Source of the DNA: Candidatus Micrarchaeota archaeon
Lineage (GTDB): Archaea; Micrarchaeota; Micrarchaeia; Micrarchaeales; CABMGC01
NCBI GenBank assembly: GCA_021804095.1
Contig: JAJZKQ010000001.1
Location: 17,993 to 81,992 of the forward strand
Direction of reading: 5' to 3'
Length of the DNA stretch: 64,000 nucleotides
Shown: piece by piece, positions 41,010-53,148 of the stretch
Layout of the letters: every line of letters starts with the position of its first letter
Position numbering within the stretch: position 1 is the first letter of the stretch
Position numbers and translations under genes: made by a program
Notes under the pieces: model-generated
The model's database searches: none
What the model was told of the DNA's origin: nothing
Seen by the model: the letters and a program-made list of their open reading frames with translations, nothing else

Positions 41010-42263
41010 TTAGCCGGCCTCGTTTTCCTCCTTTGTTGCTTCAACAGTGTGCTGTTCATCTTCCTTGAATATGGTCTTCTCTATGAGCTCCTTTATTTTC
41101 TGGGGAGGATATGCGAGTTTTATAAGTTTTGTATGCCCTCTTATTCCTTTTCCTGATTCGTAGGAGATTATTATGCCTTGCATGTTTAGATCTGCTATGT
41201 ATCTCCTGTAGAGCCTTGTGCTTTTTGCTTCTTTGTTTAACGAGCTTGCAATGGAATGATATCTGTTGTATATCTCCCCGCTAAGAACAAAAGAATCGTC
41301 GCCTTCATTAAGTTTTTTGTACCTGCTCCCGTTTATTGTCATTAAGGCTATGGCGTATACTATAAGCCGCTGATGCTCAGGCAGCGTGTTTATTATCTCG
41401 TAGGCAATCTCCTCCTCTGCCGATTTTGCAGCCTCGGATATTTCTTTTGTAGTTACATTCTGGAGGTTTCTTTCCTCCGAGAGCTCGCCTGCTTTCGTTA
41501 TTATCTTAAGTGCAAGGCGTGCGTCTCCGCTCTCTTTAGCTGAAATTGCAGCAGTTAAACTTACGCATGCAGGGTCTACAACTCCTGCTTTGAAGCCTTT
41601 TTCTACCCTGTCTTTTATTATTGCTGAAAGTTCCTGCGAATTGTATGGAGGGAATGCAAGTTCCTTTTCATAAAGGGTAGAGAGGCTTCTTGGATCTAGA
41701 TCTTCCTTGAATGAAACCCTGTTGGATATGCCTACCATTGTTATCCCTCCGGACTTCATATCGCTGTTTGCCCTGGATAGCGTGTATATGAGATCGTCCA
41801 GATCTTTTATCATATCTATTTCATCTAGAATTACTATTAGCATGCGGTTGTCTTCCTCTACCCAGTTTATTACCTTTTCATATATGTCTATGACTCCATA
41901 GCCTCGTTTTGCATACATTGGGATATGATCAGTAGCTATCTTGCTGAGCACCCTGTATCTTGAGTTGTATACCCTGCAGTTTATGTAGGATATCTCGGCT
42001 TTTATCATAGGAAGCTTTCTTATCTGTTCTATTATGTATTTCATGCATGAGGTCTTTCCCGTACCTGTTTTTCCGTAAATGAAGACATTTCTTCCCCTTT
42101 CGCCGCGCAGTGATGGCGTTATGGCGTTCTCTATTTCGGATATCTGTTTGTCTCTGAAGAGTAGATTATGAGGTATATAATGAGGGGAGAGAACCTCTCG
42201 GTTGGCAAATATAATTGATTCCTTGAATAAAGACTCGAATCCTTTTCCCAAGCTATCTACCAA
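41010..42263 (-). CDS. cdc6: Orc1/Cdc6 replication initiator
   Basis: 417 aa. Walker A GKTGTGKTS, Walker B VILDEID, sensor region, and a C-terminal winged helix. Confidence 0.9.
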   Translation of the reverse strand: MVDSLGKGFESLFKESIIFANREVLSPHYIPHNLLFRDKQISEIENAITPSLRGERGRNVFIYGKTGTGKTSCMKYIIEQIRKLPMIKAEISYINCRVYNSRYRVLSKIATDHIPMYAKRGYGVIDIYEKVINWVEEDNRMLIVILDEIDMIKDLDDLIYTLSRANSDMKSGGITMVGISNRVSFKEDLDPRSLSTLYEKELAFPPYNSQELSAIIKDRVEKGFKAGVVDPACVSLTAAISAKESGDARLALKIITKAGELSEERNLQNVTTKEISEAAKSAEEEIAYEIINTLPEHQRLIVYAIALMTINGSRYKKLNEGDDSFVLSGEIYNRYHSIASSLNKEAKSTRLYRRYIADLNMQGIIISYESGKGIRGHTKLIKLAYPPQKIKELIEKTIFKEDEQHTVEATKEENEAG

Positions 42264-43050
42264 CTATCTTTTTTGCTATTTCGGAATATTCGTTTTTTAT
42301 TTCTTTGTCTTCCTGTGCTGGAATCTTGCCCGAGTCGCTTAGCCTGCCGAATTTTGGATCTGAGCTTATGCTACCTAGGAAATCACATTGGAGTTTTTCG
42401 GCAACCTCCCTGCCTCCTGTGCCGCTCCCGTCAGACATGTTTTCAATAACCCCCAATATTGATACGTTCAGCCTTCTTGCCATGCCTCCGGATCTTATCG
42501 TGTTTACTGCAGATATGTGCTGTGGCGTTGTAACAAGGATGAAGCCGTCTAAGTCGAGAAGCTGGATTAGGGAGAGAGGAGCATCTGATGTGCCTGGAGG
42601 AAGATCTATTATAAGATAATCGAGGGTTCCCCATTCTGTATTTTCGAAGAATTCTGATATCATCTTGCCTATCATTGGGCCTCTCCATATTATTGGCGCT
42701 TTCAAGTCATCAACAAGCATAGCTGTTGATAGGATTTTTATTCCGTCTTTTTCAACAGGCATAAGCGGATACTCACCTGACAAGGTATCATTTATACCCA
42801 AGAATAGTGTGAGATTTGGGCAGTCCACATCCGCATCGAGAAGACCTACTTTGTAACCCATCTCTTTTAGCAAATATGCCAGATTGACTGAAGTTGTGGT
42901 CTTTCCAACGCCTCCTTTAGCGCTGTATATGCCTATTTTGTGCTTTATTCCTGATAGCTTTTCCCTGAGCCTCTTCTTCTGTTCTATCACTTTTAGGATT
43001 GACGGATGAGGCTTTGGAAGGCTATCTGGGTTTCTTTTTTCATCTTCCAA
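42253..43050 (-). CDS. Mrp/NBP35/ApbC-family Fe-S cluster carrier ATPase
   Basis: 265 aa with the deviant Walker A YSAKGGVGKTT. Overlaps the cdc6 start by 11 nt. Confidence 0.85.
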   Translation of the reverse strand: MEDEKRNPDSLPKPHPSILKVIEQKKRLREKLSGIKHKIGIYSAKGGVGKTTTSVNLAYLLKEMGYKVGLLDADVDCPNLTLFLGINDTLSGEYPLMPVEKDGIKILSTAMLVDDLKAPIIWRGPMIGKMISEFFENTEWGTLDYLIIDLPPGTSDAPLSLIQLLDLDGFILVTTPQHISAVNTIRSGGMARRLNVSILGVIENMSDGSGTGGREVAEKLQCDFLGSISSDPKFGRLSDSGKIPAQEDKEIKNEYSEIAKKIVGR

Positions 43051-48654: not shown

Positions 48655-49815
48655 TCAGGGTTGGATCCAGTCTATTTCATAATATTCGGCTTTGCTGTCT
48701 TTTAGTTTTATCTGCTTGATTTTATAGTAGGTTACTGCCGTTTCCCGATCGGCTATTGCAATAACTAGTTCTATTTTTAGGCGCTTGGCTTCCTTTATTG
48801 CACTTGCAAGTTCTGCGCCTCCTATAAATTCTTCTTCGCCGAAGGAGAGCATGGCATATCTTGGAGGATTGTCGTTTGGATTTTCTGAATCTCCAGATCT
48901 TCGATGGTAAAGTATGAAGTCTATTTCTGTCTTTCTGCTGTTTTTTTTGCCAGGAACTGCTAGGATAAACGTCTTCCTTACTGAATGGGCTACCCTTATT
49001 GCCCTCGCCCATTCAGATATTAGTAGGCGCGAGTTTCTTGGAAATACATGTACCACATGCCTTGAGTGCGCCCACTCCCCATTTTCTGCCTTGAATGGCT
49101 TTGCTCCTGGGAAATATATCCTAAAGTGTGTTCCAAACTTGAAGCCCGTCTTTACCACATAGCCATTCTTCCTCCAGTCTTTGTATACAGAATATAATAG
49201 ACCAAATTGGCCATGTCTGCTTTTTAGTTCTCCTATTAGCCTCTTTTTGTTTATATTGGTAAGTCTAAGCTGCCCGTTTTCAATTAAGAACAGTGTTTCA
49301 TATACGTCAAGCTTGTTTAGGTTTCCTCTGTCTGAGGCTTTGTAGGAACCGTATTGTCCGAACCAGAATGACTCGTAGATCTCTTTTGCCTTTTCTGTGC
49401 GGTTTATGACAGTCACAAGATCGGTAATAAAGAAGGTCCCTGAAAAGTGGTACCCGTGGAGGGAGAGTTTTTTTGAAGGATACTCCTTTATAGGATTGGA
49501 ATGGGGCCTTTTGTGCTTGGTCTCCGGTGTCTTTATTATAAGCCCCCTGTCTCTCCAGTCTTTATAAGTAAGGTATTTCGCCATGAACTTCTTTTCTTTC
49601 CAGAATTTTCCGGCAATCTCGTTGAATGATAATTTTGAACCTTTGTAATATATCTCCGCATTTCTCACATCTGCAAGATATAACGCTTCGAATATTGAGA
49701 GCTGTGTAGGATTTCCTTTCTTAGGTTTTCCTAGAAATCCTCTTTCCAGTATATCTTTTGTAGATTGGTCTTCTGCGGTTATTTTTTTCCTTGAATGGTA
49801 ATTTAGGACTATCAT
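48655..49815 (-). CDS. endA: tRNA-splicing endonuclease, multi-unit single polypeptide
   Basis: 386 aa. One complete catalytic unit (YSVYKDWRKNGYVVKTGFKFGTHFRIY...HSRHVVHV...RVAHSVRKTFILAV). There is also an N-terminal partial unit (LSIFEALYLA...YLTYKDWRDRGLIIKT) and a C-terminal extra segment (YAMLSFGEEEFIGGAELASAIKEAKRLKIELVIAIAD). Confidence 0.85.
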   Translation of the reverse strand: MIVLNYHSRKKITAEDQSTKDILERGFLGKPKKGNPTQLSIFEALYLADVRNAEIYYKGSKLSFNEIAGKFWKEKKFMAKYLTYKDWRDRGLIIKTPETKHKRPHSNPIKEYPSKKLSLHGYHFSGTFFITDLVTVINRTEKAKEIYESFWFGQYGSYKASDRGNLNKLDVYETLFLIENGQLRLTNINKKRLIGELKSRHGQFGLLYSVYKDWRKNGYVVKTGFKFGTHFRIYFPGAKPFKAENGEWAHSRHVVHVFPRNSRLLISEWARAIRVAHSVRKTFILAVPGKKNSRKTEIDFILYHRRSGDSENPNDNPPRYAMLSFGEEEFIGGAELASAIKEAKRLKIELVIAIADRETAVTYYKIKQIKLKDSKAEYYEIDWIQP

Positions 49816-49871
49816 CTAAACGTCTGTATTGGTTTTTTCTTGCTTTTATATTTATTGTGTGCAGGCCTGTT

Positions 49872-50567
49872 TGTCTGTTTTGAGATAAAGTGTTTTTTAA
49901 ATAGGCATGTGGTGTATGCCTGCTGCCTTGAATCAGATAGGAGATCGGATAGGTTGACTATCATAAATATAAATAATGTTTTTCCATATCTCCTTGTGCT
50001 TCTGCAATGGCAAGTAATAAAGAGGGCAAAAACCTCGATATCAGAAAAAACTCCGATTATGTCTTGAGGCTTAGGAAGGCAAGAAGAATAGTAGGCTTAG
50101 TTATGGGAGTGAGCCTCAGCATTTTTATAATAATAGCGGCGCTCGCAGTGCTGAATGAGGGTGTCATCAACTTCCTACACATAATATACTCAATAAACCT
50201 CTATTATTATGGCGCTGCGTGTCTGTTTTGAGATAAAGTGTTTTTTAAATAGGCATGTGGTGTATGCCTGCTGCCTTGAATCAGATAGGAGATCGGATAG
50301 GTTGACTATCATAAATATAAATAATGTTTTTCCATATCTCCTTGTGCTTCTGCAATGGCAAGTAATAAAGAGGGCAAAAACCTCGATATCAGAAAAAACT
50401 CCGATTATGTCTTGAGGCTTAGGAAGGCAAGAAGAATAGTAGGCTTAGTTATGGGAGTGAGCCTCAGCATTTTTATAATAATAGCGGCGCTCGCAGTGCT
50501 GAATGAGGGTGTCATCAACTTCCTACACATAATATACTCAATAAACCTCTATTATTATGGCGCTGCG
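49872..50567. repeat. Perfect tandem direct duplication, 2 x 348 bp
   Basis: 49872-50219 and 50220-50567 read identically by eye. The ORF track confirms this with identical peptides (49840/50209 frames; 50007/50355 frames share the first 71 aa). Confidence 0.9.
50007..50231 (+). pseudogene. Truncated duplicate of the 5' end of the downstream membrane-protein gene
   Basis: 74 aa. The first 71 aa are identical to the N-terminus of ORF 50355..51398. It then reads 3 codons into repeat copy 2 and stops. Confidence 0.6.
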
Positions 50568-51398
50568 TTTGTTGTCTTGTTTGCAGGTTATCTTCTACGT
50601 TTTCCTAAATGGGAAAGATATCTGAAATCTCTTAAAATCAAGATAAGAAGATGGGATAATTTCATAATATACCTTTCAATGTATTCGATGGACATAACCC
50701 CGGGAAGATGGGGAAGGGGAGTGGTTTCTTATACAATAAACAGGCTTACTGGGAGCAGGTTTGCAGTTACATTCCCCGCGGTAGTCGCAGACATATTTAC
50801 AGATTTTGTGGGCTTCGGGGCCGTTGCGATATTTTTTGCTTTTTTTGTGCATAGATATTTTGTGCTCTCTGTTGTGATAACAGGCATACTTCTCCTTCCT
50901 TTCCTCTTTTTGTATTACAAACGGCCATTCGACTATATGAGGAAGAAGCTTTCGAGATTTCGTTTTCTCAGAAGTTTCTGGAATGTCGGGGAACTCTATT
51001 TTAAGGAGAATAATAAACTAGGAAAGTTTGACTATCTGTATTCAATGATATTTACCATACCCTCGGTGATCCTGAACGGTATTGCTCTCTTTTTTGTCAT
51101 ACTTGCTTTTGGCATACACCTTCAGATTGGGGAACTTCCTGTTGTAATATTCATATTCTCCTCTTCGCTTCTCTTCGGCATAATAACCGGAGCCCCGGCT
51201 ACGCTTGGGGTCACTGACGCCCTTCTTATAGGATATCTTGTATTTTTCTTTCCAAACTTGGGAATTACCTTCGGGGTCGCAGCGGCTATAACAATATTCT
51301 TCAGAATAGTAAGTGTCTGGTTTGTACAAGGCTTCGGTTCTGCTGCGCTTTTTTACAGCATGAGGCATTGGAAATTACCTAAAGCTCAAAGTTCATGA
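50355..51398 (+). CDS. Flippase-like / lysylphosphatidylglycerol-synthase TM-region family (UPF0104) membrane protein
   Basis: 347 aa polytopic protein. The pattern YLLRFPKWERYL...YSMDITPGRWGRGVVSY fits the UPF0104 family. The assignment is tentative. Confidence 0.6.
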   Translation: MASNKEGKNLDIRKNSDYVLRLRKARRIVGLVMGVSLSIFIIIAALAVLNEGVINFLHIIYSINLYYYGAAFVVLFAGYLLRFPKWERYLKSLKIKIRRWDNFIIYLSMYSMDITPGRWGRGVVSYTINRLTGSRFAVTFPAVVADIFTDFVGFGAVAIFFAFFVHRYFVLSVVITGILLLPFLFLYYKRPFDYMRKKLSRFRFLRSFWNVGELYFKENNKLGKFDYLYSMIFTIPSVILNGIALFFVILAFGIHLQIGELPVVIFIFSSSLLFGIITGAPATLGVTDALLIGYLVFFFPNLGITFGVAAAITIFFRIVSVWFVQGFGSAALFYSMRHWKLPKAQSS

Positions 51399-52149
51399 CC
51401 AAGGCTTTCTCGGCGAAATTCATATCCGCGGGTATTATCAGGGCAGTTCTTTTGGAAGCTAGACGTTTTTCGAGACGTTGCAGTTTCAGATTTTCTGTTT
51501 CGGTATAGATGATGTTTTGGCTCTCTGTACCTATTTCACAGAGAATTATTATCTTTCTATTCCCTATAACTGTTGCGCCACGCTTCTCTTCTGCTTTTTT
51601 GATAAGGAGTATTGCATCAGCGTATGACATAGTCATGCCTGCGGAGGCGTCTACGTCAAGAAGCACAAGGGTGTGCTGGTTGTTTTCAAGGTTTCTTTTT
51701 ATCACATCGATAAATGAGACCGGTTTGTATTTGGAGCTCCAGAAGGGGACTGTTGTTGTTGGCCCGAACCGATATATGTCGAGTCCGCTCTCCCCGATGC
51801 CCGCAGTAAAGATAGAGGAGGAATGAATTGTCTGGGTTTCGGCCCCTAGCTTTCTTGCTGCCTCTATTATTATGTGGTGGGTTGTAGCTATAAGCGGGTC
51901 TCCGGGAACGAGGATGGCAAGGTTCGAATCCTTTGCAGGTTCTACTGTAATAGCAACATTGTCTTCCAGGCCTTTCCTGTCTATGGCGGTTATCTCCTTT
52001 CCTGATTCCTTTTCTAGAAAATCAAGATACCCGGATGGGAGAGGAAGAGTATAGCTCTCCATTAGTACAATGTTTGCGTCCCTTATGGCTTGGATGCCTT
52101 TGTAGGAGATATCCCCTATGTCTAAGCCAAGACCTATTATCGAAAGCAT
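51379..52149 (-). CDS. dph5: Diphthine synthase
   Basis: 256 aa. MLSIIGLGLDIGDISYKGIQAIRDANIVLMESYT...VPGDPLIATTH. Confidence 0.9.
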   Translation of the reverse strand: MLSIIGLGLDIGDISYKGIQAIRDANIVLMESYTLPLPSGYLDFLEKESGKEITAIDRKGLEDNVAITVEPAKDSNLAILVPGDPLIATTHHIIIEAARKLGAETQTIHSSSIFTAGIGESGLDIYRFGPTTTVPFWSSKYKPVSFIDVIKRNLENNQHTLVLLDVDASAGMTMSYADAILLIKKAEEKRGATVIGNRKIIILCEIGTESQNIIYTETENLKLQRLEKRLASKRTALIIPADMNFAEKALVMNFEL

Positions 52150-52197
52150 GTTTATTGCCTTTTGAGTTTTAAAGAAATTGGAAGGAAATGAGAGAAT

Positions 52198-53148
52198 TCA
52201 GTCCCTTATTCCTCCTGCGGTTATCTTTATTACAACTTCGCCTTCTGGCATGTTTGGTGAATCTACAAGCCTTATTATCCTTTTGTCCTCTTTGCTCTTT
52301 CGCATGTATAGCCTGGTGGTTGCTGCGTGTGCTACTATATTTCCACCTACAGGCGTGGTCGGGTCCCCAAAAAGAATGCCTGGATTGTCCATAACCTGGT
52401 TTGTTATGTATACTGCCAGGTTGTGGTTGTCCGCAAGCTGTTGTAGTCTATGGATGTGGCTGTTTAGCTTCTGTTGCCGCTCACCCAAGGCTCCACGGCC
52501 CGGATATTCGGATCTGAAGAGAGACATTAGAGAATCTACTACTATTAGTTTTATGTTATGCTCTTTTATGAGCTTGTCTGCCTTTTCTATTGAAAGTATT
52601 TGTTGTTCTGTTGTTGTTGCCCTCACAACAAAGATATTTGCGAGCACCTCTTTGGGATCCATTGAAGATGCGCTGGCTATCGCTTCTATTCTCTCCGGTC
52701 TGAATGTGCCTTCTGTGTCTATGAATAAGACTCCTCCACCAAGGCCGCCGCTTTCTACAGGAAGCTGGGCATTTACAGTAAGCTGGAATCCCAGCTGGGT
52801 CTTGCCGGAAGCGAATTTTCCATAGGCCTCGGTTATGCCTTTGGCTTCAACTCCGCCGCCCAAGAGCTCGTTGAGCTCCTTGCAGTTGGTGGTTATCCTC
52901 CCTATGGTTTTCCTTTCATCATATAATGCTGAGCCCGTGCTGAATTCTAGGGTTGTGGCCTGCTTTGCTGCATCTACCGCTTTTTTAGCAGCTTCTACAC
53001 TCATGCCTACAAGTTCTGAGAGCTCATGCGGCGAAGCCACCCCTATTTTATCAAGGGTATCGTAGCCTGAGCTGCGAAGTTTCTCTGCTATTGTTGGCCC
53101 TACTCCTGGAAGGTCTTCGATTTCCTTTATGCTCTTTTCCTTGGCCAT
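52198..53148 (-). CDS. radA: DNA repair and recombination protein RadA
   Basis: 316 aa. HhH LPGVGPTIAEKL, Walker A GKFASGKTQ, Walker B LIVVDS. Confidence 0.95.
   Translation of the reverse strand: MAKEKSIKEIEDLPGVGPTIAEKLRSSGYDTLDKIGVASPHELSELVGMSVEAAKKAVDAAKQATTLEFSTGSALYDERKTIGRITTNCKELNELLGGGVEAKGITEAYGKFASGKTQLGFQLTVNAQLPVESGGLGGGVLFIDTEGTFRPERIEAIASASSMDPKEVLANIFVVRATTTEQQILSIEKADKLIKEHNIKLIVVDSLMSLFRSEYPGRGALGERQQKLNSHIHRLQQLADNHNLAVYITNQVMDNPGILFGDPTTPVGGNIVAHAATTRLYMRKSKEDKRIIRLVDSPNMPEGEVVIKITAGGIRD

Follow-up and report, generated by a model that had tools for sequence, protein, structure and literature searches.

A 64,000-nt stretch of a Candidatus Micrarchaeota contig, referred to here as the window, carries two adjacent and identical copies of a 348-bp segment at the head of a gene for a flippase-like membrane protein. 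The locus raises the question of whether a strain of this archaeon really carries a duplicated gene start, possibly with a function of its own, or whether the repeat was introduced during assembly or curation.

Structure and gene content of the duplication

Direct comparison showed that positions 49872–50219 and 50220–50567 are identical at 348 of 348 nucleotides, with 0 mismatches, and the run of matches at period 348 extends over 349 nt (49872–50220 against 50220–50568). Tandem Repeats Finder reported a period of 348 with 2.0 copies, 100% matches, 0% indels and a score of 1394. No other tandem repeat in the 64 kb has a period exceeding 24 nt, and the window contains no other long repeat and no further copy of the unit; a repeat like this cannot have originated by chance. 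The feature is a simple head-to-tail tandem segmental duplication with one novel junction (50205–50235, plus strand), at which TATTATGGCGCTGCG is followed directly by TGTCTGTTTTGAG (in short form, GGCGCTGCG followed by TGTCTGTTTTG). At the left boundary of the duplication CAGGCCTGTT meets TGTCTG and at the right boundary GCTGCG meets TTTGTTG. To the right of the junction, starting at 50220, the sequence runs collinear with that of the single-copy contigs described below.

The left end of the unit lies 57 nt upstream from the ATG of the divergent neighbour endA, and the right end follows codon 71 of the plus-strand flippase-like gene. Copy 1 (49872–50219, plus strand) holds 135 nt of upstream DNA followed by flippase-like codons 1–71 (50007–50219), and the identical copy 2 (50220–50567, plus strand) continues into the intact gene. 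From the ATG at 50007, copy 1 gives a truncated ORF of 74 aa (50007–50231, plus strand), consisting of native residues 1–71, then CLF and a TGA stop. The ATG at 50355 in copy 2 opens the intact 347-aa gene (50355–51398, plus strand), a PF03706 LPG_synthase_TM/TIGR00374 membrane protein. By hydropathy, the duplicated part comprises TM1 (about residues 28–50) and roughly two thirds of TM2 (about residues 56–80). The PF03706 match of the 347-aa protein has an E-value of 1.1e-20 and 74.7 bits against a cut-off of 33.4, spanning residues 36–324 and profile positions 4–298 of 302. A homologue search returned 214 proteins, the best 120 of which all carry PF03706; among the matches listed, the homologues are full-length at about 330–370 aa, the named ones are mostly from Micrarchaeota, and the source annotations call them flippase-like or LPG-synthase-TM proteins. 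The first-pass annotation, made from the letters and their open reading frames, had described every element of this arrangement (the perfect 348-bp tandem repeat, the two start codons with 71 duplicated codons, the first transmembrane helix inside the duplicated part, the truncated and full-length products, and the flippase-like identity of the gene), and the repeat comparison, the ORF translations, the hydropathy profile and a full-length Pfam match above the curated cut-off bore it out.

Two observations on ORFs in this region are worth recording beside the duplication. On one 11,845-nt ENA contig, the flippase-like gene is split into products of 166 aa and 178 aa (P0125 and P0128) at the T-rich ttttttgctttttttg, corresponding to about 50840–50860 in the window; the split reflects a frameshift variant or else a homopolymer error in sequencing. 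On the minus strand, a 50-aa ORF (49812–49964) shares 4 nt with the start of endA, and every public conspecific contig has it annotated as a gene. The duplication also covers its first 31 codons and thereby creates a junction-spanning ORF of 40 aa (50190–50312). No tblastn match to the 50-aa ORF was found in three related Micrarchaeota, and it is probably spurious.

Upstream region and possible junction transcript

The 135 nt of upstream DNA in each copy include the 11-mer ATAAATATAAA, 34–44 nt before the ATG. In copy 1 this TATA-like box lies at 49963–49973 (plus strand), ahead of the ATG at 50007, and in copy 2 at 50311–50321 (plus strand), ahead of the ATG at 50355, where it would form part of the native promoter. 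The same 11-mer is found 30–40 nt upstream of endA on the minus strand (49845–49855), 17 nt outside the duplication. These three, the endA box and the flippase-like box with its duplicate, are its only occurrences in the window, and A/T-rich boxes stand at similar distances ahead of many other genes there. Taking ATAAATATAAA as an archaeal TATA box is a reasonable inference from its sequence and position. The first-pass annotation had held that a promoter was duplicated; the TATA-like box is indeed present in both copies, and the promoter role is what we infer from that box.

Two further elements of the unit may bear on transcription. The palindrome AGGCAT-N7-ATGCCT (49903–49921, duplicated at 50251–50269) sits between the divergent promoters and may be a regulator site common to endA and the flippase-like gene. 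A T6 run (50241–50246, plus strand) begins 10 nt past the stop of the 74-aa ORF and might end transcripts that start at the copy-1 promoter, in the manner of archaeal oligo-T terminators. A scan with bacterial-type promoter and terminator models gave results at chance level, and these models do not apply to an archaeon.

At the RNA level, the junction lengthens a native 9-bp pairing to a 21-bp G-U-rich hairpin (50212–50263, plus strand) directly after the stop of the 74-aa ORF. Its folding energy is −29.1 kcal/mol (z −2.5), and 5 of 200 shuffles fold as well; the hairpin is probably a coincidence, irrelevant at the DNA level. We also considered a non-coding RNA or tRNA within the unit, and this was ruled out by an Rfam search of the unit that gave 0 matches at E ≤ 1 and by a search that found no tRNA nearby.

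Distribution among conspecific and related genomes

In public assemblies, 41 indexed blocks contain the exact 347-aa protein; the reading covered 23 contigs, and a protein-cluster look-up has the protein on record for 21 contigs. DNA comparisons were made with a conspecific set of ten distinct contigs (labels L001–L009 and L013–L019) that are 99–100% identical and come from ENA, JGI and NCBI, namely eight ENA MEGAHIT assemblies, JGI 3300033990 and NCBI GCA_027354725.1. All ten show a left flank, one unit and a right flank, and in all ten the distance from the start of endA to the flippase-like ATG is 191 nt, whereas it is 539 nt in the window. Contigs L001–L009 each align to the window as two pieces that overlap by exactly 349 nt, and a 34-mer spanning the junction is absent from them; for L013–L019, the single-copy structure itself rules out the junction. 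Copy number in other strains or metagenomes had been put forward earlier as a check on the repeat, and the answer from these contigs is one copy throughout. A graph assembler would be expected to break contigs at a repeat longer than k, so the single-copy state in the ENA samples is unlikely to be a collapse artefact.

The protein records agree with this picture. The 74-aa junction product (P0126) has one record in a collection of 15 billion proteins, on one 86,596-nt NCBI contig, and the RadA allele private to the window (P0133) is likewise recorded on a single NCBI contig. In a gene-position index, neither the products of the junction-spanning ORFs (74, 40 and 68 aa) nor the window RadA allele were found. 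Exact 25-mer scans of two contig collections, one of genomes and one of metagenomes, found neither the single-copy nor the duplicated form; these collections are without this species at the site or mask it, which makes the scans uninformative. Since the conspecific contigs are single-copy and the junction product is found on one contig, the sequence comparisons indicate that the duplication is derived and private to one assembly.

Looking beyond the species, the closest loci in a collection of species-representative genomes are in two Micrarchaeota MAGs and one labelled ‘uncultured archaeon’, with 47–57% protein identity. In all three, the flippase-like gene has endA and radA close by, one on each side, and two of the three loci include diphthine synthase as well. 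No second N-terminal fragment of the flippase-like gene was found by tblastn in these related loci (L010–L012), each of which gave a single locus, and recurrence of the duplication in the related species is thereby ruled out.

Strain background around the duplication

Over 21 kb, the duplication is the sole structural difference between the window and the conspecific contigs. Contig L014, for example, differs from the window over this length by 20 substitutions and 0 indel columns. Several contigs match the window with about 99.99% identity on both sides of the duplication. The closest site at which any contig departs from it is about 150 nt to the right, a difference private to one contig, and the first difference from most contigs comes at least 860 nt to the right. 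No switch in SNP profile was seen at the junction, although the population is close to clonal for 1 kb to each side of it. A chimeric join of two strains at this point was considered and is unsupported, as the SNP profile does not switch there.

Further to the right, 12–17 SNPs in a patch of about 400 bp at the boundary of radA and diphthine synthase (52092–52483) separate the window from most conspecifics, and at several of these positions all contigs differ from the window. Additional differences lie in strain-specific recombination tracts to the right of this patch. In two strains (contigs L001/L013 and L009/L019), identity is about 100% on the left and falls to about 90% from around 52.3 kb rightwards. 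The pattern points to a mosaic boundary, formed by recombination, within radA; the population is otherwise close to clonal.

Homology at the breakpoints

The first-pass annotation had pointed to a T/G-rich microhomology between the junction regions as compatible with slipped or illegitimate recombination. The T/G-rich resemblance is real, with 6-nt exact runs and up to 16 of 30 identities in the best alignments, but those alignments lie 2 and 5 nt off register, and the similarity as a whole is 2–6 nt off register. In register, the breakpoints share 1 nt (T), with 11 of 30 identities around them. Pairing off register would give a different junction and so cannot have made the one observed, which rules out microhomology-mediated slippage and leaves the proposed mechanism without its basis. 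The duplication event, if real, would have been essentially homology-independent, judging from the breakpoint sequences. The footprint of a mobile element or a target-site duplication was also discarded as a candidate: the copies abut directly, no element separates them, and target-site duplications are all far shorter than 348 bp.

Origin of the duplication

The first-pass annotation had named three alternatives for a repeat with zero divergence, a very recent event, a heterogeneous amplification in the population and an assembly artefact, and all three are still standing. We lean, by a modest degree, towards a genuine duplication that is very recent or heterogeneous, carried by the sampled strain or by a large share of its population. 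A single illegitimate event, either a replication template switch or a break-and-join, would have joined codon 71/72 of the flippase-like gene, at 50219/50220, to a point 348 bp upstream, in the intergenic region between endA and this gene, giving a promoter with a truncated 74-codon ORF followed by a promoter with the intact gene. One breakpoint is intergenic, the left one lying 17 nt past the endA TATA-like box, so that the intact gene keeps its 135 nt and endA keeps all of its upstream DNA. Both neighbouring genes thereby keep what appear to be their native promoters, and the variant should be close to neutral. Its side effects would be at most a small peptide of one and a half transmembrane segments and a second upstream transcription unit, possibly terminated at the T6 run. 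Two perfect 348-bp copies would also be a substrate for RadA-dependent recombination, making the duplication unstable and prone to revert to one copy, and ready loss of this kind fits both the zero divergence and the absence from all relatives.

Prokaryotic populations often contain spontaneous tandem duplications (PMC3411829), and the locus resembles those with short junctions in its head-to-tail order, its one novel join with little or no homology, its identical copies, the single-copy state of its relatives and the instability by homologous recombination that would be expected. It is unlike them in that 348 bp is very small and covers the promoter region and 5′ end of one gene only, with no gain in dosage, and in that it comes from an uncultured DPANN archaeon and is known from one assembly. 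The preservation of the intact 347-aa gene and of both TATA-like boxes means that the event disrupts nothing, as expected of a real variant that survived, and the exact identity of the copies and the clean junction fit the same reading.

An error of assembly or curation is a serious competitor to a genuine duplication, to which we give a little under an even chance, and some of the same features speak for it. Zero divergence between copies is also what an artefact would give, as is 1 nt of microhomology, which arbitrary ends would provide. In a survey of Salmonella, the duplications that were verified showed microhomology of at least 11 bp at their junctions, and junctions with short microhomology were chimera-like (PMC3411829), and in this respect our 1-nt junction is unlike the verified cases. 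The duplication is present in one contig among dozens of conspecific ones, 21 of which are on record with the identical protein, and the junction product has one record among about 15 billion proteins. Over 21 kb, a single structural variant stands beside about 8 background SNPs, a high ratio that counts against a real variant. Chen et al. 2020 (PMC7111523) describe metagenome assembly errors in which overlaps are duplicated where scaffolds are joined, repeats are given the wrong number of copies or, rarely, identical stretches hundreds of bp in length are artificially concatenated, and these classes fit: an exact repeat of a few hundred bp with adjacent copies, absent from independent assemblies of the same population, is what such local errors in MAGs look like. 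The likeness goes only so far. Unmerged scaffold overlaps have a length of n or n−1 (Chen et al. 2020, PMC7111523), whereas 348/349 nt is no k or k−1 overlap of common assemblers, and the 64-kb window contains 0 Ns with no scaffold scar at the junction. These signs speak against an unmerged contig or scaffold overlap. The strain background is unchanged across the junction, there is no other anomaly or independent sign of misassembly in 64 kb, and the concatenation error is described as rare, with phage examples (PMC7111523). Assemblers that report only unbranched graph paths should be incapable of emitting a repeat longer than k twice, and repeat-resolving graph assemblers could thread such a loop only with junction-spanning reads, meaning that most automatic assemblers would probably require real reads across the junction to produce this structure. 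On balance, the junction is slightly more likely than not to exist in real DNA molecules.

It is also conceivable that the duplication is a selected or regulated reversible amplification, acting as a phase-variation-like tandem-promoter switch of flippase-like expression or supplying a functional 74-aa membrane micro-protein. The unit carries a TATA-like box, a start codon and a full transmembrane helix, then a stop and T6, and could thus form an autonomous mini-gene, and perfect repeats permit RadA-mediated gain and loss of copies. We still consider such a function very unlikely, as the duplication does not recur and is absent from the other strains and related species examined, its breakpoints have no specific recombination site or usable microhomology, whole-gene dosage is not raised, and a neutral event suffices with nothing further to explain. 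The most specific form of this idea, in which a real, heterogeneous and reversible duplication works as a crude on/off switch, with the 74-aa fragment interfering with the flippase-like protein or altering its transcription until RadA collapse restores the single copy, strikes us as barely credible. Amplifications of promoters or 5′ regions of the heteroresistance type do offer a parallel, in that a promoter-bearing segment is tandemly duplicated directly upstream of a gene. The present case is unlike them, with no sign of selection, recurrence or a copy number above 2, and with a T6 run that may end the upstream transcript.

Whether it is a young variant or an assembly error, the duplication is biologically ordinary. 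If genuine, it would add one more case to the known young and probably neutral tandem duplications, this time from a population of uncultured Micrarchaeota, and would document homology-independent duplication in a DPANN genome. In practical terms, the locus deserves a flag for genome curation and little weight for biology, and the 74-aa ‘protein’ deposited from the duplicated contig is a by-product of the duplication.

Neighbouring genes

The neighbourhood includes genes for endA, diphthine synthase, RadA, eIF2-alpha, L44e, GluRS and Cdc6, a gene content that marks the organism as an archaeon. The divergent neighbour endA (48655–49815, minus strand) encodes a tRNA-splicing endonuclease of 386 aa, and its TATA-like box lies outside the duplication. 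EndA has two N-terminal domain matches, one catalytic domain and a C-terminal extension of about 95 residues, a layout that we take to resemble the three-unit architecture reported for ARMAN-2. Three related MAGs, of which two carry the label Micrarchaeota, conserve the protein at 54–60% identity. Cdc6/Orc1 and a ParA-type ATPase (41010–43050, minus strand) are adjacent about 8 kb away from the duplication, and a replication origin may lie near this pair.
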